NCBI GenBank assembly: GCA_021823345.1 | Contig: JAKAOF010000007.1 | Coordinates: forward strand, 1-58,799 | From: Thermoplasmata archaeon | GTDB lineage: Archaea; Thermoplasmatota; Thermoplasmata; Lutacidiplasmatales; UBA184 | DNA: 58,799 nt | Reading direction: 5' to 3' | The notes under the pieces: generated by a model | Told to the model about the DNA's origin: nothing | What the model saw: only the letters and a program-made list of their open reading frames with translations | Database searches by the model: none | Shown: positions 18,364-58,799 of the stretch, piece by piece | Layout of the letters: every line of letters begins with the position of its first letter | Position numbering within the stretch: the stretch's first letter is position 1 | Translations under genes and position numbers: made by a program

Positions 18364-18381
18364 GCCACCCTCCGCAGGACC

Positions 18382-33562: not shown

Positions 33563-33844
33563 CCGTTCCCCCTTCCCCTCAAAGACGGCATGGTCCTCCT
33601 CGCATATCAACCCACTTGAAGGATGCCGCACGCCGGGGTCGGACGGTCCCGGCCCGCCCCCCGATCTTGGTCCCATGACCCTCTCATTTTCCCCCGGAGA
33701 GCGGACGACGGCGGCGCAGGAATACGGATAGGTTGGATTTTCCGTACGATAGGGAGATGGGGGGCCGCCTTGTGGATGGAACATCTCCCGGCCGTGTGAC
33801 CCCGTAAGCCCAAGCCGCGAGACCCTGGAGGAATCACCCACCGA

Positions 33845-37559: not shown

Positions 37560-37568
37560 TCCCCCGAT

Positions 37569-39053: not shown

Positions 39054-40687
39054 GCGGGATCCCGATGGAAGGCGATGTGCCCGCGACGATCGCTCCGTCC
39101 GCCCCGGTCCCTCCGTCCGCCCCGTCGCCGGGACGTAAGGAGGAGTTCGACTGGGTCGGCTCTTTCGCTCCGTCGATCCCCATCGGGGACGACGCTGGCC
39201 GTCCCTGGCGGCTCGAACTACCATCCGAACGATGGAAGGAGGTCACCCTCACCCTGGACCGGGCCCTGCACCATCGCCTCGCCTCGTTTTGGGCGGAGCA
39301 CTGGACGGACGGTGCCTCGCGCCTTCACACGCTATGGATGGGGGACGCTTCCTGCCGCGGGATCCACCTGATCACCGTCCTTCCCGCGGGCAACGCTGGG
39401 GTTCCCTCGTTGCTACCGGAGATCCCCGCCGCGCTCTACTTCGAGCGGGAGATGCGGGAGATGTACGGCGTGGAGTTCCTCGGAGCGGCCGACCGTCGGC
39501 CCCTGCTCCTGCATTACCAGCATTCCGGTCCCCCGATGCGCCCCGGTACGAGCCCTCCGCGGGACGCGCGGGCGCCGTTTGCCTTCCCGATCACGGAGGG
39601 GGAGGGCATCTACGAGATCCCGGTGGGCCCGGTCCACGCCGGGATCATCGAGCCGGGGCACTTTCGTTTTCAGGTCGTCGGAGAGCAGATCCTCAACCTC
39701 GAGGTCCGGTTGGGCTACACGCACAAGGCCACCGAGAAACGCTTCGAGGGCCGATCCCCCTCGCTCGGAGTGCTGCTCGCAGAATCCGTCTCCGGGGACA
39801 GTTCGGTGGCGGGGGCGGTGGCCTTCCTCGAAGCGGTCGAGCAAGCGCTCGGCATCGAGGTATCCCGTTCCGCACAGCTCTCCCGCGGGCTCCTCCTGGA
39901 GCTCGAGCGCATGGCGTTCCTCCTGGGCGACGTGGCGGGGATCGCGCTCGACGTGGGGTACGCCGCCGGTGCGGCGCAGGCCAACTTCTTGCGGGAGCGC
40001 TCCTACGAGGGCCTGGAGATGGTGGGAGGTTCCCGGCTCGGTCGGGGCACCCTCGCCCCCGGCGGTCTCGCTCGCCCTCTGGCGAGCGACATGGGAACGC
40101 CGCTCGCCGAGACGCTGGCGCTCGTCGCCCGGGGGAACGAGGAACTCTTGGAGCACCTCTTGAGCCGTCCGAGCGTGGTCGACCGTCTGCGCGGCACCGG
40201 GGAAGTGCGGACGGACGTGGCGCGCGCCCTCGCGCTCGTGGGCCCGGCCGCGCGTGCTTCGGGACTCGACCGGGATGTCCGTCGGGATCGGCCCTACGGC
40301 GCTTACCGAGAAGTGGCAGTGCGGGTCGCCGGCGAGCGCGCCGGCGATGTGGAGGCCCGGCTCAAGGTGAAGGTCGCCGAGATCGCCGAGGCCTGCCGGC
40401 TGGCGAGCGAGTTCCAGCGGGCGGGTGCGTTGGATTCGGCGAAGGCTCCGCCTCCCCTCCCAGCGCGTTCGGCGGGAGACGGGCTCGGGGTGGTCGAAGC
40501 GCCCCGCGGAGAGTTCCTTATCTGGGTCTCGGTCGGCGAGGAGGGGACCCTCCGGCGCGTGCATGTCCGCGATCCATCGTACCTCAACTGGCCCGCCATC
40601 GAGTACGCGGTGAAGGGCAACATCGTCCCCGATTTCCCGCTGTGCAACAAGAGCCTGAACCTTTCTTACTCGGGGTTCGACCGATGA
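39050..40687 (+). CDS. Ehr large subunit (HyfG/HycE-like NuoCD fusion) lacking [NiFe]-binding cysteines
   Basis: EIPVGPVHAGIIEPGHFRF, EAPRGE, RDPS; L1 region reads ESVSGDSS and L2 region reads DFPLCNKSLNLSYSGFDR; start ATG 39050. Confidence 0.88.
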   Translation: MSGIPMEGDVPATIAPSAPVPPSAPSPGRKEEFDWVGSFAPSIPIGDDAGRPWRLELPSERWKEVTLTLDRALHHRLASFWAEHWTDGASRLHTLWMGDASCRGIHLITVLPAGNAGVPSLLPEIPAALYFEREMREMYGVEFLGAADRRPLLLHYQHSGPPMRPGTSPPRDARAPFAFPITEGEGIYEIPVGPVHAGIIEPGHFRFQVVGEQILNLEVRLGYTHKATEKRFEGRSPSLGVLLAESVSGDSSVAGAVAFLEAVEQALGIEVSRSAQLSRGLLLELERMAFLLGDVAGIALDVGYAAGAAQANFLRERSYEGLEMVGGSRLGRGTLAPGGLARPLASDMGTPLAETLALVARGNEELLEHLLSRPSVVDRLRGTGEVRTDVARALALVGPAARASGLDRDVRRDRPYGAYREVAVRVAGERAGDVEARLKVKVAEIAEACRLASEFQRAGALDSAKAPPPLPARSAGDGLGVVEAPRGEFLIWVSVGEEGTLRRVHVRDPSYLNWPAIEYAVKGNIVPDFPLCNKSLNLSYSGFDR

Positions 40688-41559
40688 GCACGCACGACCC
40701 CGGCTCCCGTCCGGACGCACCCGCCGGCGGTCCCTTCGGTACGCTCGTCACGGGGACCTATCCGGAGGGACCGGCGGATCCGGTGGGACGGGGTGCCCGG
40801 ACCCCCCTTCACCAGTCCCCCCGGTGCGAGGGAACGGGGGAATGTGCATTGGCGTGCCCGACCCAAGCGATCGAGGTGACGGGGCGCGGGAAGGGAGCCA
40901 CGTTCCAACTGGACTATGGCCGGTGCGTCTTCTGCCGGGCCTGTGTCGACGTCTGCCCCACGGGGGCGCTGATCGCCTCGGCGGACTTCGAGCTGTCGGT
41001 GCGACGCCGGGAGGACCTTGTGGTCCGCCACGGGGCCGGACGCGCGCCCCCGACCTACCCGGTCGACCAGCGCAAGGAAGCGGAGACGCAGGCGCGCATC
41101 CAGCGTCTTTTCGGGGGATCGCTCGCGATCCGGGAGGTGGACGCCGGAAGCTGCAACGGCTGCGAGGTCGAGGTGAGCGCGCTCACCTGGCCCCGATTCG
41201 ACTCCGAACGGCTCGGGATCCACTTCGTCGCATCACCTCGCCACGCGGACGCGCTCCTCGTCACGGGCCCCGTGAACGTGAACATGCGGCTCGCGTTGGA
41301 GAAGACCTTCCGCGCGACCCCGTCTCCCAAGATCGTGCTCGCGGTCGGGGCCTGCGGGATCTCGGGGGGGCCCTTCCGGGACTCCGCCGAGGTGCGCAAT
41401 GGCGTGGCGCCGACGCTTCCCGTCACGGTGTTCATTCCCGGCTGCCCCCCTCGCCCGGAGGCGCTCCTCTACGGGATATGGCTCGCCCTGGGCAAGCTGG
41501 AGCAACGAGTGGTCCAGGGCGAGCTTCCGACCGCCGCTTCCGGAACGCCTAAAAGGTAA
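40684..41559 (+). CDS. Ehr ferredoxin plus small-subunit fusion (HyfH/NuoI + HyfI/NuoB-like)
   Basis: CxxxxxCxxxCP and CxxCxxCxxxCP, then GSCNGC, GAC, PGCPP; start ATG 40684. Confidence 0.88.
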   Translation: MSTHDPGSRPDAPAGGPFGTLVTGTYPEGPADPVGRGARTPLHQSPRCEGTGECALACPTQAIEVTGRGKGATFQLDYGRCVFCRACVDVCPTGALIASADFELSVRRREDLVVRHGAGRAPPTYPVDQRKEAETQARIQRLFGGSLAIREVDAGSCNGCEVEVSALTWPRFDSERLGIHFVASPRHADALLVTGPVNVNMRLALEKTFRATPSPKIVLAVGACGISGGPFRDSAEVRNGVAPTLPVTVFIPGCPPRPEALLYGIWLALGKLEQRVVQGELPTAASGTPKR

Positions 41560-45442: not shown

Positions 45443-45646
45443 TCAGGGGGGTCCGAGTCCTTCGGTGAGCTTTGCGATGCCCCCGAGGAGGAGCAGCAGG
45501 CCGGTCCCGCCCAGGATGAGGAAGAGGAGCGATGGCTCCGAAGTGAGGTGCGCGGTGTCGAAACCCGGGTAGTAGAGCGCGTACGCCGCTAGGAGGAGAA
45601 CGAACCCGAGGATCGTGGCCACCGCGGCCCCCGTCGTTCGCGCCAT
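45443..45646 (-). CDS. Small two-TM membrane protein
   Basis: 67 aa with two hydrophobic segments; host-like codon usage. Confidence 0.55.
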   Translation of the reverse strand: MARTTGAAVATILGFVLLLAAYALYYPGFDTAHLTSEPSLLFLILGGTGLLLLLGGIAKLTEGLGPP

Positions 45647-45753
45647 CTCAGGTGTTCCAGGGTGCGGGCGCCTATAGCCATTGGCTCCCGCTCGGCCCGG
45701 CCAGTGGTGCGCCGCAACGGATAACTATCCCCCGGTACCTTTCGTGCGCCATC

Positions 45754-48642
45754 GTGCACACCCCCACTGCGGCTCCCGTTCCTGGCGAGGTCCCGTTCGT
45801 AGGCCGTCGCAAGGAGATCGCCGCGCTCCGCGAGCACCTCCTCCACGCCCGGGATGGCCAAGGGGGCGTGGTCGTGGTCTCCGGTCCGGCAGGGATCGGC
45901 AAGACCTCGCTCCTCCGGTGGCTGGAAACGGAGGCCGAGCGCCAGAGCTTCTCCGTGCGATGGGGATACTGCCTGCCATTGTCGGCGGGCCCCTTCTTCC
46001 CCTTTCTCCAGCTCTTCCCGCAGGCCACGACGCTCCGGGAGAAATCGACGCCCGACCGTCGTCGCCGTTCGGGTCGATCGACCCGTGTAGCTCGCCCAAC
46101 TCGGTCGCCTCCGGGAGGGATCCCGGGGCTCCTTCAGTTCCTGGACGCGATGGAGACGCAGTCCGCCGCGCATCCCCTGGTGTTGCTCCTCGATGACTTC
46201 CACTGGGCCGATCCGGAGTCCATCCAGGCGCTCCGGCTCCTGGGACGGAATGCCCGCCGGCGAAGCGTCCTGTTCGCCGTGGCCGTCCGGGAGACGGAAG
46301 TGAGCAGTCCCTCGCTCCAGGACCTCCTCCGGGACCTTCGAAGGGAGGGGGTCGCGCGGGACCTGCCGCTCACCGGTTTCCGTGAGCAGGAGGCGCAGGA
46401 CCTGCTGGAGAGCGTGATCCGGGCTCCCATGGACACCCACCGGGTACGGGGTGCCTTGCGCGCCCTGCTCGCCCGCACGGGGGGAAATCCCTACTTCTTG
46501 CTCGAGACGGCCCGCCAGCTGCAGGAAATGGGTCAATTGCGGCGGGAGGAGGGCCGCGCGGTGCTCGAGGTGCGCGAACCCCGCGGGACGGAACGTCCCC
46601 TGGATGTGCCCTCGAACGTTGGGGCGCTCCTCGATGGGACCGTCGCGCTCCTCGCCCCCGAGGAGCGGGAAGTGCTCGAGGGGGCGTCCCTCATGGGACC
46701 GGAGTTCGAGCCGGCCGCATTGCCCGCGGTCCTGAGGAAACGCAGCCGGGAGGTGCTCTCCACGCTCCACCGGCTCACCTCGGCCCGGAAGCTGGTGGAG
46801 CCGGTCGATGGGACCCCCGGGCGGTACCGATTCTCCCACATTCTGCTCCAGGAGCGGATCCGTTCTTCGATACCGGCCGATCGCAAGGGCGTCTGGATCC
46901 TAGGTCTACTGCATTGGTGGGAGTCCGAACGTCCCGCGGCCGTCGGTCAGATCTTCGCTCTGTGCCGCGATGCGGACATCTATCCGACGGGATCCGCGGC
47001 TTGCGTCAAGGCCATCGACTCCGCCCTCGAGTCCCACGGGCACGAGCGGGCCGCAGGGCTTGCCAATGAGATGCTCGAGTGGATGGTCGAACGGCACGAG
47101 TCCAATGCGGTGACGGGCGCCTGGGGGCTCCGCACCTTGGACCGGATGCGCCAGGACGGGGCGGCGGGCCGCTGGACGGAGCCGCTGTGCCGCCGTCTCT
47201 TGGACCTGGGCCTTCCCGTTCCCCTTCGTTGGCAAGTGTCCATCCGATTGGCGGGGATCATCGCGGACCGGGTTCCCGAGGCCCGCCGTACCCTCGACCA
47301 GGTCCAGTCGGAGATGAAGCGGTCCCCGCTCTCGAGCGAACCGGCGCTGCAGGGAACGTTCGCGCTCATGGACTCGGTCGTGCTCTACAACGAGGGGAAG
47401 ACCGCCGCCTCCGAGGCCGCGGCCCAGCGGGCCCTGGATATCCTTCCGCCGGAAGAGAAGTTCTACCGTGGACTGGCCCTTCACCGGCTGGGCTGGGTCG
47501 ATGCGGAACAGAACCGCTGGGCGGACGCCCGGGACCGCATCGAAGAGGGGTTGTCCCTCGCCCGATCGGAGCGCTACTGGGGCCTCATCCCCTACTTCCT
47601 CCTGATGCGGGGGCAGGTGGCCACCATTCAGGGCGAACTCCTGCGCGCCGAACAGATCTTCGAAGAGACCGCGGGGGTCTGCCGCGATCTGGGGCGCATG
47701 AACTGGCTCGCGACCACGCTCGCGGACCTCTCCCTCGTGCGGGCGGATCGCGGGGACCTCGCCGGAGCGGAGTCGGCTTCGAAGGAGGCCCTGCGGGTCT
47801 CGGAGACCTTTTCGATCCCGGGGGAGATCGGACCGAGCCTCCTCCAGTGGTCCCGGGTCAAGCTTCGGCAGGGGTTCCCGGCCGAGTCCATGGAGATACT
47901 GCGGCGCGCCCAGAAGGCGTACGCCGAGCATGGTCGTTCGACCGAGGTCCTTGAGATGCGGATGCACCGGGCCGACATCCGCTTTCACCTCGGCGATCCC
48001 AAAGGCGCGATCGAGGAGCTGCGGGACATCGAGGAGGGGAAGCTCAAGGAGGAGCAGGTGGCCCACCTGCATCTCCTCCGGGCCCAGTTCCTGATGGCTC
48101 GAGGGGATGGGCCCCGGGCCCGATCGGCCGCCGAGCGCGCGCGCTCCGAAGCCACCTCCCGGGGCCTTCGGTACAGTGCGGCCCAGGCGAACGCCACCCT
48201 CGCGGAATGGGAGCGTCGATACGGGACGCCCGAACGCGCAGCCGCGATGCAACGGCGCGCCGACCTCCAGTTCCGGGAGTGCGGCGTGCTGCGGACCTTC
48301 CGGTTCGATGGGAAGATACCGGGGGTTCCCTCCGTCACGACCTCTCCGACCCCACCGGCGCTCGCCCTCCGCTCTCCCTTGGCCTACCGCCTGCTGCGGT
48401 ACCTCTCCGTCCACGGCGCGATCGAGGGGATGATCGGACCGCGGGACCTCGCCCCGTTCGCCCTCACCCAGCAGGGGATCGCCCAAGGCCTCGGGATCCC
48501 CCGGGACCGCTTCAGCATGGTGCTCAAGCGGCTGGTGGACCGCGGGCTTGTCACCGCGCGCCAACACTACGTCCAGGCGGCGACACGCCGGTTGAAAGTG
48601 TACGTGCTCACCGAGGCGGGCGCCCGTCTCGTCTCCGCATAA
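45754..48642 (+). CDS. STAND-class ATPase with TPR-like repeats and C-terminal winged helix-turn-helix
   Basis: FVGR, Walker A GPAGIGKT, Walker B LLLDDFHWAD, GGNPYF, helical repeats, C-terminal LTQQGIAQGLGI..LKRLVDRGLV..KVYVLTEAG; start GTG 45754 (45652 possible). Confidence 0.85.
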   Translation: MHTPTAAPVPGEVPFVGRRKEIAALREHLLHARDGQGGVVVVSGPAGIGKTSLLRWLETEAERQSFSVRWGYCLPLSAGPFFPFLQLFPQATTLREKSTPDRRRRSGRSTRVARPTRSPPGGIPGLLQFLDAMETQSAAHPLVLLLDDFHWADPESIQALRLLGRNARRRSVLFAVAVRETEVSSPSLQDLLRDLRREGVARDLPLTGFREQEAQDLLESVIRAPMDTHRVRGALRALLARTGGNPYFLLETARQLQEMGQLRREEGRAVLEVREPRGTERPLDVPSNVGALLDGTVALLAPEEREVLEGASLMGPEFEPAALPAVLRKRSREVLSTLHRLTSARKLVEPVDGTPGRYRFSHILLQERIRSSIPADRKGVWILGLLHWWESERPAAVGQIFALCRDADIYPTGSAACVKAIDSALESHGHERAAGLANEMLEWMVERHESNAVTGAWGLRTLDRMRQDGAAGRWTEPLCRRLLDLGLPVPLRWQVSIRLAGIIADRVPEARRTLDQVQSEMKRSPLSSEPALQGTFALMDSVVLYNEGKTAASEAAAQRALDILPPEEKFYRGLALHRLGWVDAEQNRWADARDRIEEGLSLARSERYWGLIPYFLLMRGQVATIQGELLRAEQIFEETAGVCRDLGRMNWLATTLADLSLVRADRGDLAGAESASKEALRVSETFSIPGEIGPSLLQWSRVKLRQGFPAESMEILRRAQKAYAEHGRSTEVLEMRMHRADIRFHLGDPKGAIEELRDIEEGKLKEEQVAHLHLLRAQFLMARGDGPRARSAAERARSEATSRGLRYSAAQANATLAEWERRYGTPERAAAMQRRADLQFRECGVLRTFRFDGKIPGVPSVTTSPTPPALALRSPLAYRLLRYLSVHGAIEGMIGPRDLAPFALTQQGIAQGLGIPRDRFSMVLKRLVDRGLVTARQHYVQAATRRLKVYVLTEAGARLVSA

Positions 48643-48650
48643 GGCGAATC

Positions 48651-48690
48651 TGTTACAAATTTGTTACATTTGATGCGTCAGTTCATATAG
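48651..48690 (+). promoter_or_regulatory. TGTTACA direct-repeat operator and TATA-like box upstream of the muramidase operon
   Basis: TGTTACA at 48651 and 48662 (11-bp period) spanning palindrome ACAAATTTGT; TTCATATA ends about 24 nt before ATG 48713. Confidence 0.55.
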
Positions 48691-48712
48691 GGTCCATGGG
48701 ATATCACTACCG

Positions 48713-51700
48713 ATGGCGTCCAGGGGGAGAGAATCTTATCGCGCTGGACTTGGTTTTGTAGGAACGGGGAACGAGCACGGACCGGAGGAGCCCGCGGGAT
48801 CTCCTCTGGATGTTCCGGTGATGGACGAGGGGCCGACCCATGAAGCCCCGTCCACGCGGTCCGTCCGTCGATCGCACCGCCCCTCAACGGGGATTATCGT
48901 ACTAGCGATCACCATGGTCGTCACCATGGGGGCCATCGTGGCCCTGCCCGCCGTATCGGCCACTTCCCTGCCCGGTTCCCCCGCGGTTCCCTCTAGCGGC
49001 ACCTGCAACCCCTCTTCTCCTTCGACCTTGTTCAGCTGCCTGGAAAGTCGCGTATCCTCTCAGCAAGGCGGCTCGTTCCTCGCCTCGTCCCAGTTCCTGT
49101 CGATCATCATCGGTGGCGCAGAGAAATTGGGAACGCAGTACGGATTCCCCTGGGAATATGTGTACTCGCAGATGGCGGGTGCGGAGTGCGGTGCATGCGC
49201 GTACGCGCAGTGGCCGGGATACTCTGCTCCGGGCAACGTCCACAGCGCCCAGAACTGCTTCAACTGGTGGAGCCTCACTCCGGGGGGAGAGTCCTCCCAG
49301 TACCAACACCTATCCTACACGTATGCGAACGTCCCGAGCGAAGCGGTCGTCACCAATGTGGGATGGCGCTGCTACAACATGTGGGACGGGGGCGGTCCCG
49401 GGAATGGGGGCGGGGACTACGACATGTACGACTTCAACGTGAACCCGGGTCCGCCGGGAGACACTAGCGATTCGGTCTCTCAGGCCATCACCTCGCTCAC
49501 GGACGCCACCACGGGGCCGAACGGGATCACCAGTTACTATTCCTCGAACGTCGGGGTGTGCTACAACGGCTTCTGCGGCTCCGAGATCAAGAACACCTGC
49601 AGCTTCTCCACTTGGGCGGGTGGAACCTACGCCATCGGCCGTCCCTGGGGGGGGGAGGCGAGCTATGCCAGCTCGATCCAGGGTGAGGTCAACTATCTGT
49701 TCGGATCGGTCGCCAATGTCCAGGCCGCGGCGACCGGGGGCAATGGCGCCCCGTGCCTCACGCCGGATGCGGTCACGAGCGGCGGAGGCAGCACCTCACT
49801 GACCGTAAGCTATGGCGCGCAGATCGGAAGCAACCAGATTCACTGCGGCGCGAGCTTCGTGAGCGGGACCACGGTCACGTTCACCGCCTCGGTCAGTGGC
49901 GGCAGCGGTAGTTACTCCTACTCCTGGAACTTCGGGGACGGGTCCTCCGTCGGGCACGGGACCCCCGTCAAGCACACCTATTCCAACGTGGGCACCGTGA
50001 ACCCCCAGCTCAGCGTGACCGACTCGAACAAAGATACGGGGTCATCGGGTTCTGGTTGCACCTTCACCGTCACCTCGGGGTCCACGGGTACGGTGAACGG
50101 CATCGACGTCTCGAGCTATCAATACACGCCGAACTGGCAGACGGTCGCATCCTCCGGCATCCAGTTCGCCTGGGCCAAGGCGACCCAGGGCAACTACTAC
50201 CAGGATGGCGTTTTCAACTACGATATGACCAACGGCAAGGCGGCCGGGGTCATCATGGGGGCGTACGACTTCGCCGACCCCGACAATGTGGCGGCGACGA
50301 CCGAGGCCGCGTACTTCGAGAGCTTCGCGGGAGGATACTTCAAGGCGGGGTACCTCGTCCCCGCGCTGGACATCGAGACCGGCTGTTCCGGGGCCGGGAA
50401 CGGGAACCTCAACGCCGCCCAGATCTCCTCCTGGGTCGACACGTGGTCCTCCAACGTGGCCTCCTACATCCAGACCCATGACGGCTACACGGTGAAGCCG
50501 ATCATCTACACGTACACGAGCTATGCCTCCTCGTGCCTCACCTCGGCGGTCACCTCCTACCCGCTCTGGATCGCCTGGCCCTATTCCTCGTCCCCGTCGA
50601 CCACTCCCTGGTCGGTCTGGGATGTGTGGCAGTACGGGACGACCTCGGTCCCCGGGGTTTCGACGGCGACGGATGTCGACCGGTTCCATGGGGACCTCTC
50701 CCAGCTCAAGTCGACGTTGGTCATCGGCGGCACCCCCTCGGGAGGGACGGGCCCTACCTGCCCCAACCTCGCCGCCGTCACCAACCCGAACGTTGACGGG
50801 CATTCCACGCCCTCCGTGACCCAGTCGAGCGTCGGCACCGGGTACTGGCTGGTCGGCGCGGATGGCGGGGTCTTCACCTTCGGCAATGCCGGATTCTATG
50901 GTTCGGCCGCCAGCAAGAAGCTCGGTGGATGCATCGTCGGGATGGCCGCGACCCCGGACGGGAAGGGGTACTGGCTGGTAGGTTCCGATGGGGGCGTCTT
51001 CGCCTACGGCGATGCCGGATTCTACGGCTCGATGGCGGGTAAGTCCCTCGCAAAGCCCGTCGTGGGAATGGCCGCGACCCCGGACGGGAAGGGCTACTGG
51101 CTCGTTGCGGCCGATGGGGGCATATTCAATTTCGGGGACGCGACCTTCTATGGCTCCCTGCCGGGAGAGCATCTTACGGTGAGCGACATCGTCGGGATGG
51201 CCGCGCTCCCGGACGGGAAGGGCTACTGGCTGGTGGGCGCCGACGGAGGCGTCTTCAGTTTGGGCAGCGCCGCGTTCTACGGCTCGATGGGCGGGAAGTC
51301 CCTCGCCGCCCCGGTGGTCGGGATGGCCACGCCCGACGGGAAGGGCTACTGGCTCGTTGCGGCCGATGGCGGGATCTTCAGCTTCGGCAGCGCCGCGTTC
51401 TACGGCTCGATGGGCGGCAAGGCCCTCGCCAAACCGGTCTCCGGAATGGTGTCCACCCCGGACGGGAAGGGCTACTGGCTCGTGGCCCAGGACGGGGGAG
51501 TGTTCAGCTTCGGGGATGCCCCCTTCTTCGGGTCGATGGCCGGCAAGTCCCTCGCCGCCGCGATGGTGGGCATCGCCGCCGTCCCCTCCGCGGCGAACGC
51601 CGTTCCCGTCGTGTTCACCGCCACCTCACAGACCTCCGGGTGCGGCTCGGGCTGCAACATCTGGTCGGCCGCCCACCTGTCGCTCTCCGTGAGCGGCCCT

Positions 51701-52612
51701 TCGGGGGCCGTGGGAACCTACACCGCGAACACGGCCGCCCTCCTCCTTGAGCCGGGTACCCAGTACACCGTCCAAGTGTCCGTGGGCAACTCGGCCTATT
51801 CGGTGGGCAGCTGGTCCGACAACAACTTCGCCACCCTCATCGTGAGCGTGGGCGGAACGAACCATCAGTACTCTTCCAAGTGCGGCACGCCCACCACCAC
51901 GCCCGGTACCTCCGCCAAGAGCGCGCTCCTCGACACCGGGACGGCCTGGAGCTCGAGCTGCCAGGCCTCCCCACCCCTCGGCGAGCATGTGAACGTCAAC
52001 ATCGTGTCGAGCGGAGGAGGGTCCTCCCAGTGCTCGCAGGCGACCGCGGTGACCCTCGGCAAGGTCGTTACGGGGACCTTGTCGGCCGGCGGCTGCGTCC
52101 TGTTCTCGGTGGCCATCACGCAAACGGACTGGAACAACTGGGGATACCTGGACGCCTACGAGGTGGAGGGTTCCGGTGCATTCCAGATCGCCGCGGGGAT
52201 GTCCCCGCCGACGGTCACCGCGGCGAATGCGCGGGCCGTCGCGAAGGGCCCCGATGCGGCGGTGTCCGTGCCCCTCACCTCCCCCCTGGCGAACCAGTGG
52301 ATGGGATGGGGGACCTATGAGTACCTCGTGACCGCCCCCGGGACGGGAGGGAGCTACTGCTTCGTGACCTACCTTTCCAACCTCGAGGCGACTCCCTCGG
52401 CCTCGTGCGCCACGCACGTCCTGGCAGGAAGCCCCCTGCCATCCTCCCAGGACGCCGGGACGCGGACGTTATCCGTGCCCGCCCCTAGCGGTGTCTCGGT
52501 AGCAATTCTCCCGGGTAACGCATGGTTGAGCTCGATAGTCCTCCTCTCGTTCGTCGGGATCGCCACCGGCCTGTTCTTCCGAGGACGCCGCACCGAGCGA
52601 AACCTGGCATGA
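48713..52612 (+). CDS. Surface-anchored multidomain peptidoglycan hydrolase: GH73-like domain, PKD, GH25 muramidase, six GYWLV repeats, Cys-rich domains, C-terminal TM
   Basis: GH25 motifs GIDVSSYQ, KATQG, GAYDF, LDIE, WQY, DVD (~50090-50715); PKD YSWNFGDG..HTY; N-terminal signal and C-terminal TM plus RGRR; alternative start 48821. Confidence 0.88.
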   Translation: MASRGRESYRAGLGFVGTGNEHGPEEPAGSPLDVPVMDEGPTHEAPSTRSVRRSHRPSTGIIVLAITMVVTMGAIVALPAVSATSLPGSPAVPSSGTCNPSSPSTLFSCLESRVSSQQGGSFLASSQFLSIIIGGAEKLGTQYGFPWEYVYSQMAGAECGACAYAQWPGYSAPGNVHSAQNCFNWWSLTPGGESSQYQHLSYTYANVPSEAVVTNVGWRCYNMWDGGGPGNGGGDYDMYDFNVNPGPPGDTSDSVSQAITSLTDATTGPNGITSYYSSNVGVCYNGFCGSEIKNTCSFSTWAGGTYAIGRPWGGEASYASSIQGEVNYLFGSVANVQAAATGGNGAPCLTPDAVTSGGGSTSLTVSYGAQIGSNQIHCGASFVSGTTVTFTASVSGGSGSYSYSWNFGDGSSVGHGTPVKHTYSNVGTVNPQLSVTDSNKDTGSSGSGCTFTVTSGSTGTVNGIDVSSYQYTPNWQTVASSGIQFAWAKATQGNYYQDGVFNYDMTNGKAAGVIMGAYDFADPDNVAATTEAAYFESFAGGYFKAGYLVPALDIETGCSGAGNGNLNAAQISSWVDTWSSNVASYIQTHDGYTVKPIIYTYTSYASSCLTSAVTSYPLWIAWPYSSSPSTTPWSVWDVWQYGTTSVPGVSTATDVDRFHGDLSQLKSTLVIGGTPSGGTGPTCPNLAAVTNPNVDGHSTPSVTQSSVGTGYWLVGADGGVFTFGNAGFYGSAASKKLGGCIVGMAATPDGKGYWLVGSDGGVFAYGDAGFYGSMAGKSLAKPVVGMAATPDGKGYWLVAADGGIFNFGDATFYGSLPGEHLTVSDIVGMAALPDGKGYWLVGADGGVFSLGSAAFYGSMGGKSLAAPVVGMATPDGKGYWLVAADGGIFSFGSAAFYGSMGGKALAKPVSGMVSTPDGKGYWLVAQDGGVFSFGDAPFFGSMAGKSLAAAMVGIAAVPSAANAVPVVFTATSQTSGCGSGCNIWSAAHLSLSVSGPSGAVGTYTANTAALLLEPGTQYTVQVSVGNSAYSVGSWSDNNFATLIVSVGGTNHQYSSKCGTPTTTPGTSAKSALLDTGTAWSSSCQASPPLGEHVNVNIVSSGGGSSQCSQATAVTLGKVVTGTLSAGGCVLFSVAITQTDWNNWGYLDAYEVEGSGAFQIAAGMSPPTVTAANARAVAKGPDAAVSVPLTSPLANQWMGWGTYEYLVTAPGTGGSYCFVTYLSNLEATPSASCATHVLAGSPLPSSQDAGTRTLSVPAPSGVSVAILPGNAWLSSIVLLSFVGIATGLFFRGRRTERNLA
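50833..51580 (+). repeat. Six intragenic ~126-bp repeats encoding PDGKGYWLVxxDGGVFxFGxAxFYGS
   Basis: Repeated (CC)GGACGGGAAGGGCTACTGGCT visible at DNA level; ~42-aa protein period. Confidence 0.9.
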
Positions 52613-55600
52613 GCGGGATCCCTCTCCGGGGGGGCCTCCTCCTCCACGGGTCCATCCTCATCGCCGCGATGGTGTTGGTGATCGTCCTCCTGCCGGTGGC
52701 CACCGGACCGGGCCCATCGGCGCCGCCGTCCGTCGCGCTATCGGTCCCCTCTCGCCACAGCGCTTCCGGGTCCCCGTCGGCGGGACCCCTCGTCGCGCTG
52801 GCGACGAACTACAGCGGGACCCCCTCCGTGAAGGACCTCTCCTCGCTGCTTCCCTCGGTTCCCGGGGGATCGTGGTCCCGGGTCTCGCGCATCCTGCCCC
52901 TGGGCGGGGGAAGCTTCGAGGTCCTCGGCGCCGACAGCGCTACCATGATCCCGAAGCTGGGTATCCTCACGACCGCGACCACCCCTGCGACCTTCACCGA
53001 CACGACCTCCGGTTTCACCGCGCAGCTCAACAACGTCTCCGCGGCATCGCTCACGGGCAACACCTACGATGGCGGGCAGCTCACCGGTGCCCCCACGACG
53101 ATGTACCTGTGGAATGCTCAGTTCGGACAGTTCAGCGTCTTTCCCGAGATATGGACGGTGAACACCGCCACGAAGGCCGTCACCTCCATGACCATTCCCC
53201 CGTCCTTCACTGCGCTTGATGGGGCGACCTCCGATGGGGCCTTCCTCCTCTTCGTGGGGCAGAACTTCTCCGGGGCCACCCCTGAAAACCTCTTCAGCGT
53301 CTACAATGCTTCCGCAGGGTACGTCAACGTCACCGGGGACATTCCCGCCTCCTTCGGGGCCGCGCAGTTCGCCGTGGGGACCAGTTCCGGGTTCCTGTTG
53401 ACCTCGAACCAGAGCAGCAACACCCTCGGGCTCCTCTCCTACTCGACCGGAGTCTGGAAGTTCACCAACCTCACCGCTTCGCTCCCTCCCACGTCCACCT
53501 TCACTTCGCCGGCCGATCCCCTGGCCACGAACGGCCCCGAGATCCTCCTGGGGTCCTTCCCCCACGGACTGCCCACGGGCACGCCGGACGCCTGGGGGGT
53601 CCTCAACCTGACCACGTCGACCTTCGCGAACGACACGGCGCCGGTCGTCGCCGCGCTGGGTACGCCGACGGCTGCCACGCGAAATCCCGTGAACGGCGTC
53701 AACTTCACCCTGGCCTCGGCCTCCGAGGTCGCCAACCTTGATGGGGCGACCGGCACGGTGTCGAAGCTCGCGGCGAGCGCCCCGTGGAACTCTTCCGAGA
53801 CCCCCACGAGCCTCGAGTGGACCGCATCACGCACCTTGCTCGCCGGGGGCCAATCGACGGGAGGGTGGGCCTTCCTCGACTCTTGGGCCGGGTCCGGTGG
53901 TGTGACCCCTCTGACCCTCCCCTCGGGCCTCGTGGACCCTTCCACCATGGCGTATGGGAACGGGGAGCTCTGGCTGGGCGGCAGCAACGGAAGCGCCGGC
54001 TCCGGCCTCCTCATCAACCTCACGAGTTCCGCCATCGTGCCGCTCGGCAGCGCCTTCCCGGTCCACATGAGCACCCTCTCGGCGTCGACCATGCTGGGCT
54101 CGACGCTCTACCTCTCGGACGGATCGACCATCCTTTCGTACAACACCGCGACCTCGGGACCCTTCTCCGTGCTTCCCACCGTGCCCGGCAGCGGGTACAC
54201 TGACACCCTCGCCGTCGTGAACGGGACCCTCTGGGCCGGGGGCACCCTCTTCACCGGCGCGGCGGGACTCTTCCAGTATTCCGCCTCCGGAGGGACCTGG
54301 ACCAATCTCTCCGGGAACCTCGGGAGCATGGGCTTCGGGCTCGGGGACATCGTTCCCGGGAACTCCACGTCCGCGCTCCTCGGCGGGATCTCCGGGAATG
54401 GGACCGGGGACATCTGGTACTTTAGCGCCTCCTCGGCGAAGCCCTTCCAGAACGTCACGAGCGACATGGGCGCCACGCCTCCGACCCTCGCAGGATCGGA
54501 GCAGGCCGGGTGGAACGGGACGGCCTTCTGGCTCCTCGATGGGTCCCAGATCCTTTCGTGGGCTCCCTCGCAAACCTCTGCGGCGTTCGTCTTCTTCACC
54601 TCGCCGGTCCCGCTCCTCTCGCTCAACTCCCTCGCCGTCGCCCCGCAGGGATTCGTCCTGGGCGGTTACGGGAACGAATCCGTGAGCGCACCCAATGTGC
54701 CGGTCGCGCTCGTCGGAGGAGGGAACACCGGGCGGTTGGACGACCTCACGTCCCTTCTCGGGAAGAACTGGACCCTTCCACCCCTGTCCTACATCGCCGG
54801 CAATGAGATGGCGATCACCTCCGAGAACCTCTCCGGGGAAGCCACCCTTGCCGCACTTCCCCCGCTCCTCCAAGGCACGCTCTACGCGAACGCATCGGAA
54901 GCGGACGCGCCGAGCACCATCCACTTCTCCCTCCAGGTGAGCGGTGGGGTCCCCTCCTACGGGACGGTCCAGTGGGTCATCTCGGGCAAGCCCAGCCTTT
55001 CGGGGCCCAGCGCCAACTTCGTGTTCAACACCTCGGGGATCTACCAGGTGAACGCCTCGGTTTCCGACTCCGGTGGAGCGTCGTTGCTCGTGCAGGGGAT
55101 CGTCACCGTCAATCCTCCGCTCTCGCTCCAGCTCCAAGCCACCCCCACCTCCGGGCTCGCTCCGCTCACCGTGAGCGTGAAGTGGAACCTCACCGGGGGC
55201 GCCGGGGTCGGTCTGGGGGTCGACCTCTCCTTTGGGGACACGGCCGTGAACAACGGACTCGGGGCGAACGGCACCGTGTCCCACACGTACGCAACGGCCG
55301 GGGTCTACACGTTGACCGCGACCGGGACCGACGGCGTGTTGACCCTCACGCAGACCCAGACGATCACCGTCTCCTCGTCAACGCCACCGCTGCCCACGCT
55401 CACGGGGGCCGCCATCTCGCCCGCCACGATCCAGGTCAAGACCAGCGCCACGCAGGCGTTCTCCGGAACCCCCCAGTGCTCCAGTTCCTGCCCGGTCGTG
55501 AACTACTCCTGGGGAATGAGCGGCCACTTCGGGACGCTCAACTCGACACGGGGCAGCTCGGTCGCGTTCACCGCCGGCACGGTGAGCGGCAATTTCACGC

Positions 55601-55929
55601 TCTATCTCAACGTGTCCCTCAATGGGACGGTCAAGGCCGCGACCGCCCACGTGCAGGTGGTCGCCTCCACGACCACCCCTCCCCCGGGAGGGAGCTCGTC
55701 GAACTCTGGCATTCCGCTCACGGACGTCGTGGTCCTGGTCGTCGTGTTCCTGGTGGTGATCGTGGGGCTCCTCGTCCTCATGATGCGCCGGCGCCAGCAG
55801 GCGAGCCCAGCGGCCCCCGCACCCGCCGCCTCGCCCCCGCCCGCGATGGCCGCAGCGCCCGGGTTCCCGGCGGGACCCGCCGCCCCCCCCTCCCCGCCGG
55901 CACCCAAGAAGAAGCGCGGGTGGGTCTGA
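52609..55929 (+). CDS. Large surface glycoprotein with beta-propeller-like repeats, PKD domains and C-terminal TM anchor
   Basis: ATG 52609 overlaps the upstream TGA (ATGA); signal peptide, recurring xNL[TS]xxL motifs, PTSGLAPLTV..FGD..HTY PKD, TM plus RRRQQ and Pro-rich tail. Confidence 0.8.
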   Translation: MSGIPLRGGLLLHGSILIAAMVLVIVLLPVATGPGPSAPPSVALSVPSRHSASGSPSAGPLVALATNYSGTPSVKDLSSLLPSVPGGSWSRVSRILPLGGGSFEVLGADSATMIPKLGILTTATTPATFTDTTSGFTAQLNNVSAASLTGNTYDGGQLTGAPTTMYLWNAQFGQFSVFPEIWTVNTATKAVTSMTIPPSFTALDGATSDGAFLLFVGQNFSGATPENLFSVYNASAGYVNVTGDIPASFGAAQFAVGTSSGFLLTSNQSSNTLGLLSYSTGVWKFTNLTASLPPTSTFTSPADPLATNGPEILLGSFPHGLPTGTPDAWGVLNLTTSTFANDTAPVVAALGTPTAATRNPVNGVNFTLASASEVANLDGATGTVSKLAASAPWNSSETPTSLEWTASRTLLAGGQSTGGWAFLDSWAGSGGVTPLTLPSGLVDPSTMAYGNGELWLGGSNGSAGSGLLINLTSSAIVPLGSAFPVHMSTLSASTMLGSTLYLSDGSTILSYNTATSGPFSVLPTVPGSGYTDTLAVVNGTLWAGGTLFTGAAGLFQYSASGGTWTNLSGNLGSMGFGLGDIVPGNSTSALLGGISGNGTGDIWYFSASSAKPFQNVTSDMGATPPTLAGSEQAGWNGTAFWLLDGSQILSWAPSQTSAAFVFFTSPVPLLSLNSLAVAPQGFVLGGYGNESVSAPNVPVALVGGGNTGRLDDLTSLLGKNWTLPPLSYIAGNEMAITSENLSGEATLAALPPLLQGTLYANASEADAPSTIHFSLQVSGGVPSYGTVQWVISGKPSLSGPSANFVFNTSGIYQVNASVSDSGGASLLVQGIVTVNPPLSLQLQATPTSGLAPLTVSVKWNLTGGAGVGLGVDLSFGDTAVNNGLGANGTVSHTYATAGVYTLTATGTDGVLTLTQTQTITVSSSTPPLPTLTGAAISPATIQVKTSATQAFSGTPQCSSSCPVVNYSWGMSGHFGTLNSTRGSSVAFTAGTVSGNFTLYLNVSLNGTVKAATAHVQVVASTTTPPPGGSSSNSGIPLTDVVVLVVVFLVVIVGLLVLMMRRRQQASPAAPAPAASPPPAMAAAPGFPAGPAAPPSPPAPKKKRGWV

Positions 55930-55944
55930 GATACCTCCCCGCGA

Positions 55945-57234
55945 TCAGGACGGAGCTTCCGGTAACGCAGGAAGCGGTGTAGGGTCGAGTCGCCACAGCT
56001 TGCGACCCGCGAGGGAAAACACCCCGGAAAGGAGGAGCCCGGCTCCCGCGAACTCGATCGTGGGGGAGATCCCATACTTCCCGATCAGCACGCCCCCGAC
56101 GATCTGGGACACGGGCAACACCCCCCAGCTCAGGAGGCCATCGAGCGCGAAGTAGCGGCCTTGCACACCGGTGGGCACCATCGTCTGGGCGGCCGTGAGC
56201 CAGGTGTTCCCGGCAAAGCTCGAGAACACCACGTAGCTGAACACCAGGGGGAAGGCGAGCGTCGGGGCGCTCACCAGGGAAAGGCCGAAGAGCCCGAGCC
56301 CCGACCCGATACCGTACCCCAGCACCCAGACCTTCCCGACGTGTCGGACCGCCGCCGTTCTCCCGACCAGGAGGACCCCGATGGCGCTCCCCGCGGTCAT
56401 CGTCGCCAGGAACAGTCCGTAGGTGAGGGAGGTCCCGTGGAGGTTCTCCACCACGTAGACGACCACGAAGGTGGTGAACACGGTGCTGAAGAAGTTCATG
56501 AACAGGGCGGATACCGAAAGTTGCCAGAGGCCCGGAGCCTGGTGGATGAGCCACCCGAACCCTTCGGAAAGTTCCCGCAACATCCGGGGCGGAGCGGCCC
56601 GGGGTTTCCGGGAGGCCTGGTGCGCGAGGCGGAGGGCCCGGTAGACGCTGAGGAGGAAGAGGGAGGAGACCACGAAGGTCAGGGAGTTGTAGAGTATCCC
56701 GAGGACGGCCCCGACCGTGATCACGAGGATCCCCCCGATCGAGTTCGAGACGAGGCTCACCAGCGAGCGGGAAGCCAGGTTGAGCCCGTTGGCGTCCGCA
56801 AGGTCCTCGGGCGGGAGGATCGCCGGGAAGAGGGTCTGCTCGGCCGGCTGGAAGAGGACCGAGGCGGCCGAGACGACGAACATCGCGACCAACACGAACG
56901 ACAGTTGAAAGCCCTCCCAAAGGAACGCCACCGTGAGCCCTCCCAGCGTGACCGCCCGGATGAGGTCCGCCGCCACCATGAGGCGCACCCGGTCGTACCG
57001 GTCGATCCAGACCCCCGAGGGAAGCGTGAAGGCGATGGTCGCGGCCAGCTCCACGATGCCGACATAGGCGACATCCATCGCGGACTTCGTGGTGGCGAAC
57101 ACGATCCAGATGATCGCCACGCTCGCGATGGTCCTCCCGCTCTGGGAGGTCAGTCCGGCAAGGTAGACCGCCCGGAAATTCGGGACCTTGAGCACTCGGG
57201 CAAATCGATGGGTGGTTCCTTCCGCTGGACGCAT
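55945..57234 (-). CDS. MFS transporter (DHA3/macrolide-efflux-like)
   Basis: About 12 TM segments; GVWIDRYDRVRLMVAADLIRA motif A, LADANGL, QTMVPTGVQGRYF. Confidence 0.88.
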   Translation of the reverse strand: MRPAEGTTHRFARVLKVPNFRAVYLAGLTSQSGRTIASVAIIWIVFATTKSAMDVAYVGIVELAATIAFTLPSGVWIDRYDRVRLMVAADLIRAVTLGGLTVAFLWEGFQLSFVLVAMFVVSAASVLFQPAEQTLFPAILPPEDLADANGLNLASRSLVSLVSNSIGGILVITVGAVLGILYNSLTFVVSSLFLLSVYRALRLAHQASRKPRAAPPRMLRELSEGFGWLIHQAPGLWQLSVSALFMNFFSTVFTTFVVVYVVENLHGTSLTYGLFLATMTAGSAIGVLLVGRTAAVRHVGKVWVLGYGIGSGLGLFGLSLVSAPTLAFPLVFSYVVFSSFAGNTWLTAAQTMVPTGVQGRYFALDGLLSWGVLPVSQIVGGVLIGKYGISPTIEFAGAGLLLSGVFSLAGRKLWRLDPTPLPALPEAPS

Positions 57235-57340
57235 GGCGAGTTCTCGTTTTCCCCGGCTTCGACAGGCTCGACCCGTCCTTCCCTATAGCCGCCGCGGGCT
57301 CTGGGGAGGGACGGTCACCCCGGCGTCCCTTCAGAAGGAC

Positions 57341-57347
57341 TTATAAG
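57341..57347 (+). promoter_or_regulatory. TATA box of the S53 peptidase gene
   Basis: TTATAAG preceded by purine-rich BRE-like AGAAGGA; about 25 nt before the ATG at 57373. Confidence 0.55.
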
Positions 57348-57363
57348 GGGGACTGGAATCAAA

Positions 57364-58680
57364 ATGCCTCATATGGCGAACGTAGGGCAACCTCGGCGCT
57401 GGAAGACAATTGGAACGATCGCGGTGACGGGACTGTTGACGATGGGATTCCTTTCCCTAGTCCCGATCCTCCTGAACTCGACCGCGCCGGTGGCCGCTCC
57501 GGGGGTGACGTTCCTCCCGGACGCCGTGCCCTTCGTGCACGTGATCTCGTCCTCTTCGAGTCACCACAAGCCCGGCGGCGGCGGTGGCGGCGGCGGCGGA
57601 TCGACCTGCACCACGACCCTTCCGGCCGCGAACGGCGTGTCCTTCACACCGGCCGAGATCCGGCAGGCGTACGGCTACTCCTCGACCTACACTGGGGCGG
57701 GAGAGACCATCGCGATCATCGACGCCTACGGGAGCCCCACGATCACTTCCGACCTCGCCTGCTTCGACCAGACCTTCAGTCTGCCGGCGCCCAGCCTCAA
57801 CGTCGTCGCGCCGTTCGGCAAGGTCCGCTCGAACTCCGGTTGGGGCCTTGAGACCTCGCTCGATGTCGAGTGGGCCCACGCCATGGCGCCCGCCGCCAAC
57901 CTCCTGCTCATCGAAACCCCCTCGAGCTCGTTCACCTACCTCGTGAACGATGCCGTCCCCTACGCGGTCGCGCACGGGGCCAAGGTCTTCTCGATGAGCT
58001 GGGGTGCCGCGGAGAGTTCCTTGACCTGCTCCACGGAAGCCACCGAAGCAACGTACTTTGCGAACGCCGTTGCCGCGGGGGCGATCCCGGTGGGTGCCTC
58101 CGGAGACAGCGGGGCCAATGACGGCACTTCGTCCCCCACGGTCGATTACCCTGCGGCGGACGTCAACGTCGTGGGCGCCGGCGGGACCTCGCTTACCACA
58201 ACCAACACCGGAGCCTACAACGCCGAGACCGTCTGGAACGATGGCTCCAAGAGCGCGACGGGTGGCGGAGTGAGCGCATGCCTCGCAGAACCCTCCTACC
58301 AGAGTTCCCACAACATCCTGGTCACCACTTCCTCCGGCTCTTCCACCCCCACCGGGCGGGCCGTTCCCGACGTTTCCTACGATGCGAACCCCTCGACCGG
58401 GGTCTGGGTCTACGACACCTCGGGATACTCCGGCTGGGTGCAGGTGGGAGGCACCAGTGCCGCGGCGCCCCAGTGGGCCGCGATCTTCGCAGATGCCCTC
58501 TCTGCCGGGGCCGCCATCAACGGAGGTAACATCCACGCGGACCTTTACAACCTCCTGGGGACGGCGAGCCTGCACGATGTCACCCAAGGCGGCAACGGTT
58601 ACTACTACGCAAGCGCCGGATACGACGCCTGCACGGGAGTCGGTTCCCCCGTGGAGTCGAACCTGATCAGCGCGCTCTGA
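57364..58680 (+). CDS. Secreted S53 (sedolisin/kumamolisin) peptidase without a classical prodomain
   Basis: ETSLDVEW (Glu-Asp), SGDSG oxyanion, GGTS serine, DVT.G.NG..GYD..TGVGSP calcium site; N-terminal hydrophobic anchor. Confidence 0.92.
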   Translation: MPHMANVGQPRRWKTIGTIAVTGLLTMGFLSLVPILLNSTAPVAAPGVTFLPDAVPFVHVISSSSSHHKPGGGGGGGGGSTCTTTLPAANGVSFTPAEIRQAYGYSSTYTGAGETIAIIDAYGSPTITSDLACFDQTFSLPAPSLNVVAPFGKVRSNSGWGLETSLDVEWAHAMAPAANLLLIETPSSSFTYLVNDAVPYAVAHGAKVFSMSWGAAESSLTCSTEATEATYFANAVAAGAIPVGASGDSGANDGTSSPTVDYPAADVNVVGAGGTSLTTTNTGAYNAETVWNDGSKSATGGGVSACLAEPSYQSSHNILVTTSSGSSTPTGRAVPDVSYDANPSTGVWVYDTSGYSGWVQVGGTSAAAPQWAAIFADALSAGAAINGGNIHADLYNLLGTASLHDVTQGGNGYYYASAGYDACTGVGSPVESNLISAL

Positions 58681-58799
58681 ACGGCGAGTCCCGGGTTTCC
58701 CCGGGGGCCGCATCGAGGGAGAAGCGCTGGATGCGCCCGCTTGATACGGCCCGAACCCCGCGGATCGGCTCGTCCCCGCGTCGCTCAGAACCTATCCTC

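Follow-up and report, generated by a model that had tools for sequence, protein, structure and literature searches.

A candidate regulator-linked, two-gene peptidoglycan-hydrolase cassette in an archaeon of the class Thermoplasmata

What use could an archaeon without signs of murein synthesis have for a muramidase, and what might switch such an enzyme on? The question is raised by a stretch of 58,799 nucleotides from a Thermoplasmata archaeon (contig JAKAOF010000007.1 of assembly GCA_021823345.1), called the window below, in which the gene of a STAND-type regulator is followed by two overlapping genes for predicted surface proteins. The first of these, gene 1, contains a GH25 muramidase domain, and the second, gene 2, encodes its partner. 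From sequence analysis we hold, with moderate confidence, that the locus is a regulated two-gene archaeal peptidoglycan-hydrolase cassette. Its parts, in their order along the window, are the following.

45754 to 48642, plus strand: gene of the STAND-type regulator (Pfam: AAA_16 P-loop NTPase, MalT-like TPR, C-terminal MarR-like winged helix).
48651 to 48667, plus strand: candidate operator, a direct repeat of two TGTTAC copies (from sequence; conserved in the related genome G002).
48682 to 48690, plus strand: TATA-like box TTCATATAG (from sequence), about 27 nucleotides before the ATG at 48713.
48713 to 52612, plus strand: gene 1, predicted surface peptidoglycan hydrolase of 1299 residues (Pfam: PKD and Glyco_hydro_25; hydrophobic ends).
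48965 to 49837, plus strand: orphan N-terminal domain of gene 1, residues 85–375 (four relatives in a protein search).
49850 to 50044, plus strand: PKD domain of gene 1, residues 380–444 (PF18911, PF00801).
50102 to 50644, plus strand: GH25 muramidase domain of gene 1, residues 464–644 (PF01183, 118.7 bits, cut-off 27).
50753 to 51592, plus strand: beta-propeller of gene 1, six repeats of about 42 residues, residues ~700–960 (repeat analysis).
51593 to 52492, plus strand: C-terminal beta-rich region of gene 1, including a module of about 160 residues at 1098–1260.
52609 to 55929, plus strand: gene 2, partner surface protein of 1106 residues (PKD in Pfam; hydrophobic segments at both ends).

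The GH25 domain is predicted to be a muramidase with an intact catalytic site. Its profile match was reproduced in a six-frame search of the genome, and its best solved relative is the bacterial muramidase Cellosyl (1JFX; E 2.8e-28, 207 residues aligned). The equivalents of the catalytic residues are kept, namely the Asp of a GIDVS motif and the Asp and Glu of an LDIE motif, which presumably correspond to D9, D98 and E100 of Cellosyl. By hydropathy alone, the gene 1 protein has hydrophobic segments at residues 57–87 and 1263–1290, and the start codon of gene 2 at 52609 overlaps the stop codon of gene 1 as ATGA. The overlap, the PF01183 score and the hydropathy profile agree with what the initial annotation, made from the letters of the window, had described here: two translationally coupled, membrane-anchored surface proteins, the first with a GH25 domain.

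The other parts of the gene 1 protein are less familiar. A search of 1.84 billion representative proteins returned four relatives of the orphan N-terminal domain; according to a Pfam scan, one of them is fused to NlpC/P60 and another to an amidase-like domain plus the propeller. The orphan domain has no sequence match among solved structures, and an AlphaFold2 model from a five-row alignment gave no usable fold (mean predicted local distance difference test, pLDDT, 30.8). A lead to an SLT-family cluster in the ESM Atlas (0.89) was weak and was not relied on. The C-terminal region likewise has no sequence match among solved structures; its module of about 160 residues also occurs twice in a sedolisin-bearing open reading frame (ORF) of 1170 residues elsewhere in the genome (G000:C24:10687-14199, where G000 is the genome carrying the window and C-numbers are contigs). 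The same genome has a second GH25 gene (G000:C42:121939-128528), which encodes 863 residues with GH25 and PKD domains and 13 N-X-S/T sequons and is followed by a gene for a GH57 and PKD protein of 1281 residues. These two look like a glycan-degrading surface pair, and no STAND gene accompanies them.

The host itself is an archaeon of the class Thermoplasmata. Its assembly comprises 1.86 Mb in 73 contigs, with 93.6% completeness and 0.22% contamination, and encodes S28e and L15e, two ribosomal proteins specific to archaea, which among the control genomes were matched only in the four archaeal ones. Small-subunit ribosomal RNA was not found in the assembly, no transfer RNA genes or Rfam matches were found in the window, and the other window genes scanned include no archaea-confined families. 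The composition of the contig is ordinary for the genome, with the 4-kb windows at 48001 and 52001 falling at the 76th and 85th percentiles of 390 such windows. In three public sequencing runs of one study, the two flanks of the propeller-repeat region have similar depths (about 130 and 128, 9 and 8.5, and 53 and 52). In one run, a contig that starts at 43000 extends to within the GH25 domain and a second covers 51388–58799, and the propeller repeats are the sole part broken into short contig pieces. Moreover, another assembly has a protein 99% identical to the gene 1 product on a contig of 160.8 kb. A contig chimera was rejected as unlikely, given the equal depth of the flanks in all three runs and the synteny shared with sister genomes. 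The archaeal origin of the contig, on which the initial annotation depended, is thus supported by marker genes, low contamination, composition, depth and synteny.

The host shows no sign of murein synthesis: searches of its genome returned no match to murein transpeptidases and one gene of the Mur-ligase family, as in murein-less control archaea. On the same counts, a murein or pseudomurein wall of the host's own was rejected as the substrate. A different possibility is that the substrate of the GH25 domain is a glycan of archaea or of biofilms, in which case the cassette would serve adhesion or the remodelling of surfaces. In its favour, the gene 1 protein has no recognised domain for murein binding (LysM, SH3b or PG_binding) that scores above cut-off, the nearest being SH3_YKFC_2nd with 16.7 bits against 27.4, and generic PKD or propeller surface proteins make up the partner as well as many of the neighbours of STAND paralogs. 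However, the catalytic residues are kept, the closest solved relatives are true muramidases and the genome shows no murein synthesis. Additionally, the alternative heads found on the same chassis in relatives are wall-hydrolase domains resembling Amidase_6 and NlpC/P60, which indicates murein as the common substrate. A non-murein substrate therefore appears highly improbable.

Control of the enzyme may lie in the short spacer before gene 1. Only 70 base pairs (48643–48712) separate the stop of the STAND gene from the ATG of gene 1. The two TGTTAC copies lie at 48651–48656 and 48662–48667, 11 base pairs apart from centre to centre, with the first copy 8 base pairs past the STAND stop. The initial annotation had reported a STAND-TPR gene with a winged helix, a direct repeat 8 base pairs later and a TATA-like box, and all three were recovered where it had placed them. 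The pattern TGTTAC-N4-7-TGTTAC is found a single time in the 1.86-Mb genome, against 92 TGTTAC hexamers on both strands, and the repeat is therefore beyond chance. In G002, a genome of the same genus, the flanks of the spacer have diverged, but both copies, the letters from the repeats to the box, the ATATA core and the region of the start are kept. Among 122 loci, the repeat was found at those of G000 and G002 only. A paralogous locus of the latter (G002:C75) has three GTCAC repeats with 11–12-bp spacing, followed by a similar A/T box. A distance of about 27 nucleotides between box and ATG fits a leaderless archaeal promoter, which implies that the box is probably the promoter element of a leaderless transcript.

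A strain variant was also seen in this region. On a genome-depth contig of one public run, 1105 other letters stand in place of positions 48578–49802, a stretch that takes in the final 65 nucleotides of the STAND gene, the spacer with the operator, and the orphan N-terminal domain. Since the G002 ortholog differs here as well, the head end of the hydrolase is variable.

The gene before the spacer encodes a plausible reader of the repeat. It stops at 48640–48642 and has an alternative in-frame start at 45652. Its product matches AAA_16 (87.6 bits), TPR_MalT (54.1, cut-off 45) and TPR_12 (44.7), ends in a MarR_2-type winged helix-turn-helix (35.9 bits, cut-off 27), and shows Walker A (GPAGIGKTS) and Walker B (LLLDDFHW) motifs in its translation. 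It combines the NOD module, TPR sensor and DNA-binding domain that characterise regulators of the MalT/PH0952 kind. With 42.1 bits against a cut-off of 537, it falls far below the MalT equivalog model NF003420; judged by sequence, it resembles MalT in design and is not a MalT ortholog. Its core has no sequence match among solved structures, MalT and PH0952 included. An Avs-like anti-phage role was considered and set aside, as the sole PADLOC match was BrxD, which scored 16.6 bits and was limited to the P-loop. The STAND-TPR family is expanded in these archaea, with six matches in G000 (the others on C5, C12, C31, C52 and C55) and up to 20 in genome G021. The copy on C5 is divergent to genes for surface proteins with PKD and NHL/lactonase-propeller domains. 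On the other side of the STAND gene of the window, at 45444–45647 on the minus strand, lies a divergent ORF of 67 residues with two hydrophobic stretches, and a similar coding-looking stretch occupies the same place in G004, another genome of the genus.

Is this gene linked to the hydrolase, or is it only its neighbour? In G002, the order is LysO, STAND (62% identity), GH25 protein (75% over residues 367–1296) and partner (59%), and the ATGA overlap of the two surface-protein genes is present there too. A search of 40 relatives found eight propeller-hydrolase loci in three genera, and at seven of the eight the hydrolase gene is immediately preceded by a STAND gene of the same orientation (G000:C44, G002:C8, G002:C75, G006:C1, G011:C96, G016:C11 and G020:C68; the exception is G004:C34). 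The STAND proteins at these loci are 28–63% identical to that of the window, with the match reaching the winged helix. In contrast, a STAND gene was near none of the nine GH25 loci without propeller (10 genes from four families, with two complete genomes of 1.4–1.5 Mb among those covered; up to about 9 kb was scanned on each side and less at contig ends). This suggests that the STAND link follows the propeller chassis and not GH25 as such. The lytic head on this chassis is GH25 at two loci and Amidase_6-like at six. GH25 in general was found in 14 of the 301 sampled genomes of the class and in seven of 88 genera. Synteny of STAND, GH25 and PKD genes in relatives, which the initial annotation had named as a check, is thus found in G002, and the adjacency of STAND and hydrolase genes extends to three genera. 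At another site in that genome (G002:C59), a STAND gene lies directly upstream of a partner paralog.

The opposite view would be that the STAND gene is a mere neighbour that may regulate itself or some other target, the hydrolase operon being constitutive or otherwise controlled and the repeat being the site of a different protein. G004 speaks for this view: after RecQ and LysO, the chassis of propeller and C-terminal region recurs there (59% identity) with an Amidase_6-like head in place of GH25, the partner comes after a 49-nucleotide gap, and this pair is kept with neither STAND gene nor repeat. The abundance of STAND paralogs points the same way. So does a second pair in the genome of the window (G000:C15:24792-31887), in which a protein of 1342 residues with a C-terminal Amidase_6 domain precedes a partner paralog (37%); upstream of it are a GTTAC-AC-GTAAC palindrome, an A/T box and an 876-residue gene without family match, and no recognisable STAND gene. 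Nevertheless, the figures of seven in eight against none in nine speak against chance proximity, repeat and STAND gene are both present in G000 and G002 and both missing in G004, and no defence-system model matches the STAND protein. Mere proximity is accordingly regarded as improbable.

The propeller that defines the chassis has a history of its own. No Pfam or NCBIfam model covers it, and among solved structures it weakly matches 1L0Q (E 0.003), the YVTN propeller from an S-layer protein of an archaeon. Instead, it is 55–68% identical to the C-terminal modules of secreted proteins of Actinomycetota. A pattern search of the genome collection confirmed at least 596 stretches, out of 600 pattern matches, and 80 were kept; 79 of these are Actinomycetota records, mostly Acidimicrobiia including Acidithrix ferrooxidans, and one is a Thermoplasmata record. 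In the protein database, at least 7931 proteins carry the propeller (of 8000 candidates scored), whereas it occurs in two of the 301 sampled genomes of the archaeal class. Run labels indicate that the host and the Acidimicrobiia share an acid-mine habitat. The distribution, heavily weighted towards Actinomycetota, argues for a transfer of the propeller to these archaea, probably followed by replacement of the head. In four runs, including a sediment run of another study, the propeller repeats at 50905–51431 draw from several-fold to about 100-fold extra contig depth, which means that sequences at least 90% alike in DNA are present in other members of the community.

In bacteria, the propeller usually closes the protein, and the secreted enzymes to which it is attached are of many kinds. 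The best 120 of the at least 7931 proteins include fusions to Amidase_3 (in a record named Actinomycetota), Amidase_2 plus SpoIID, CHAP (six proteins) and Phage_lysozyme2. GH25 plus propeller is found among these 120 in four proteins only, each at least 85% identical to the gene 1 product. A family scan of bacterial propeller proteins covered 59 of the 80 loci, leaving out seven with internal stops and ORFs outside 400–1200 residues; no wall hydrolase was among its 25 commonest families, although the search of the best 120 proteins did show such fusions. In a quick maximum-likelihood tree, six of seven archaeal propellers form one clade (Shimodaira–Hasegawa-like approximate likelihood ratio test, SH-aLRT, 90), with the long-branched G002:C75 copy outside, and the amidase-bearing propeller of G004 falls inside the GH25-bearing group (SH-aLRT 98). 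As the tree is midpoint-rooted and its bacterial rows are the best matches to the archaeal query, it is compatible with a single archaeal origin and is no proof of one. The propeller is proposed to be a wall-targeting module.

In the partner protein, a hydrophobic segment at the N-terminus is followed by a predicted ectodomain that is all-beta and includes PKD/Ig domains; a transmembrane helix and a tail rich in Pro and Ala form the C-terminal end. Its orthologs, 59% and 45% identical, were the only two returned by a word-based search of 5.8 billion proteins. A model from a four-row alignment (pLDDT 49.6) is all-beta with Ig-like domains at 780–1020 and a C-terminal helix, and Foldseek related it to generic ectodomains with propeller and Ig folds at template-modelling scores of 0.07–0.2 (SorCS2, BT4663, 1L0Q). 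The model suggests an all-beta protein with Ig-like domains, in which a propeller is a low-confidence feature. The propeller/PKD partner of the initial annotation is upheld for PKD and only tentatively for the propeller, at which the low-confidence model hints; the clear propeller sits in the GH25 protein. ESM Atlas leads to PKD/propeller clusters (0.83–0.88) were weak and were not relied on.

A marked contrast between the two proteins lies in their N-X-S/T sequons. The hydrolases contain 0, 1 and 0 where 10.7, 9.5 and 8.5 are expected, and none of 500 shuffles was as low; members of the partner family contain 32–36 against 10–12 expected, a three-fold enrichment, and none of 500 shuffles was as high. 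In the window, the gene 1 product has no sequon and 24 Cys, and the gene 2 product has 32 sequons and two Cys. Such a contrast between co-translated surface proteins hints at selection for glycan-free enzyme surfaces.

These elements can be combined into a working model. The cytoplasmic STAND protein would bind the two TGTTAC copies directly upstream of the TATA box, a position that suits activation, and in the presence of its ligand would switch on a leaderless bicistronic transcript. The gene 1 product may then be exported and tethered to the membrane, displaying in turn the orphan domain, a PKD spacer, the muramidase and the captured six-bladed propeller. The propeller might dock the enzyme onto Gram-positive walls of the Acidimicrobiia type, with the C-terminal helix holding it at the archaeal surface, so that lysis would need contact. 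The gene 2 product, translationally coupled and predicted to be heavily N-glycosylated, could plausibly serve as a scaffold or adhesin.

Several observations weigh against this model, beginning with the hydrolase–partner pair of G004. The operator footprint is confined to two species, and loci of the g3 genus have different upstream sequence. The STAND paralogs are not only numerous; some adjoin other surface-protein genes, and the adjacency to the hydrolase could therefore reflect a general surface-protein theme. The bacterial propeller is fused to many partners that do not act on walls (Big_1, pro-kumamolisin, GH43/44 and fn3), and it may therefore be a general surface or glycan anchor. The N-terminal segment at 57–87 could be a cleaved signal as well as an anchor, the topology being predicted from hydropathy, and the partner model is poor. 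Finally, the genome has no match above cut-off to the etherase of N-acetylmuramic acid 6-phosphate, a result that argues only against this amino sugar as a food.

The last point leads to a rival that shares the enzyme and its regulation and differs in purpose. The cassette might serve scavenging, either of wall debris and necromass or by opening dead or live cells for their peptides, within a surface toolkit for breaking down proteins and sugars, and not as a weapon. In favour of this, the genome encodes seven S53 sedolisin-like genes, a sedolisin-bearing protein shares its C-terminal module with the GH25 protein, the second GH25 gene adjoins the GH57 and PKD gene, and the enzyme is predicted from hydropathy to be tethered and not released. 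By contrast, the missing etherase, an adjacent MFS transporter that is of efflux type and lies on the other strand, and a patchy distribution with head swapping that resembles the arms-race pattern of weaponised hydrolases (PMC12352652) all speak against it. Scavenging is a possible though doubtful explanation. Competition and feeding, moreover, are not mutually exclusive purposes.

The cassette reading can also be extended to a more specific proposal, which we consider rather unlikely and put forward tentatively. It would be a contact-dependent bacteriolytic device, with a propeller derived from Acidimicrobiia, interchangeable heads, an enzyme kept free of N-glycans beside a densely glycosylated partner, and a STAND protein that senses a prey molecule such as a muropeptide, giving a feed-forward attack. 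If true, it would be the first described sensor-to-weapon circuit in archaeal antagonism of bacteria.

The initial annotation had also placed two downstream genes in the module.

55945 to 57234, minus strand: MFS transporter of efflux type (MFS_3; EntS and Mef matches below cut-off).
57364 to 58680, plus strand: S53 sedolisin (kumamolisin 1GT9, E 1e-41).

Both genes are present, and neither is retained as a member. The MFS gene is convergent with gene 2, on the opposite strand and of efflux type, and, like the sedolisin gene, it is missing from the G002 and G004 loci; downstream of the G002 cassette are a DpnI-like gene and a helicase, with no MFS and no sedolisin gene. The sedolisin keeps the aligned Glu and Asp (in an SLDVE stretch) and Ser (GGTSA) of 1GT9, which we take to be E78, D82 and S278 of kumamolisin, and no Pro-kuma_activ domain was found in it. 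Elsewhere in the window, 33845–41559 encodes Proton_antipo_M, NADHdh, 49-kDa, 30-kDa and 20-kDa subunits and a 4Fe-4S protein (Mrp-antiporter-like and NADH-dehydrogenase-like), a cluster that resembles a membrane-bound group-4 hydrogenase or a complex-I-like module. UvrA and UvrC are encoded at 15499–20016 and PPK2 at 32759–34390.

The locus represents a candidate regulator–operator pair for an archaeal wall hydrolase, and such a pair may underlie the induction that Aciduliprofundum shows in coculture. Its propeller is a candidate new wall-targeting domain, without a family model and very common in Actinomycetota, where at least 7931 proteins carry it. It is also a natural case in which lytic heads have been exchanged while the putative targeting chassis was retained, and the Acidimicrobiia of the same acid-mine habitat are the possible target guild. 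Archaeal attack on bacteria has been documented only recently, and the enzymes described in the covered literature are soluble. The locus provides a testable genetic handle on archaeal attack or feeding on bacteria. Practical interest would arise if the enzyme proved to be acid-active and specific for Gram-positive walls.

Known systems share single features with this locus. GH25 is found in four of five sampled genomes of one archaeal family with complete genomes of 1.4–1.5 Mb, which we presume to be Aciduliprofundum. The GH25 proteins of that family have about 574–630 residues and neither propeller nor adjacent STAND gene, and their GH25 domain is about 40% identical to that of the window. 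Aciduliprofundum boonei, a member of the same archaeal class, likewise has a GH25 muramidase, which was acquired from bacteria, kills Gram-positive bacteria in vitro and is raised at the transcript level in coculture (PMC4241558; PMC12352652). No regulator of it is named in the covered portion of PMC4241558, and the window protein differs from it in its 1299 residues, its terminal anchors and its coupled partner gene. About 5% of archaeal genomes encode modular peptidoglycan hydrolases, with Thermoplasmatota as a prominent group (PMC12352652). The initial annotation, which mentioned the Aciduliprofundum enzyme and knew of no regulated, anchored multi-gene version, overstated the novelty, given the up-regulation in A. 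boonei (PMC4241558) and the occurrence of such hydrolases in other archaea (PMC12352652).

Another close parallel comes from Strock et al. 2025, who described archaeal genes in which a lytic domain of bacterial type is joined to a wall-binding domain of Actinomycetota-like origin; catalytic domains have been exchanged, the genes are patchily distributed, and an antibacterial use was proposed (PMC12352652). The pattern of a head replaced on a kept binding domain is the same as here. Theirs is PG_binding_1 in Halobacteria, and the enzymes they tested were M23 plus PG_binding_1 proteins from that group (PMC12352652). The gene 1 protein has a catalytic domain and no recognised wall-binding Pfam domain; it would fall outside their count of modular hydrolases because that survey required a known domain of this type. 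The text of PMC12352652, its supplementary tables being outside coverage, makes no mention of regulation, transmembrane segments or PKD. The literature search as a whole found no regulator, membrane anchor or propeller described for archaeal wall hydrolases; the supplements of PMC12352652 and PMC4241558, which lay outside its coverage, may list relatives.

On the side of the regulator, MalT of E. coli, the predicted archaeal STAND-TPR transcription factor PH0952 of Pyrococcus horikoshii (PDB 6MFV; PMC6468293) and the STAND protein of the window all unite a NOD NTPase, a TPR sensor and a DNA-binding domain. Regulators of the MalT/PH0952 kind are ligand-released, autoinhibited switches (PMC6468293). 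The three differ in the DNA-binding domain, which is a LuxR-type helix-turn-helix in MalT, an N-terminal ArsR-like domain in PH0952 (PMC6468293) and a C-terminal MarR-like winged helix here.

On the side of the enzyme, Cellosyl (muramidase M1 of Streptomyces coelicolor, PDB 1JFX) has the same aligned acidic catalytic residues, but this bacterial enzyme is secreted and consists of one domain in 217 residues, whereas the window GH25 is part of a multidomain protein. The C-terminal propellers of Actinomycetota, mainly Acidimicrobiia, have the same repeat consensus, and some copies sit on autolysin-type domains; unlike the propeller of gene 1, which is followed by the C-terminal region, they are usually the last domain and are mostly found on non-lytic enzymes. 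Archaeal wall hydrolases and an inducible GH25 were thus already known, and what this locus adds to the published systems is a hydrolase that is linked to a regulator gene, predicted to be anchored and fitted with a captured, putative targeting domain.

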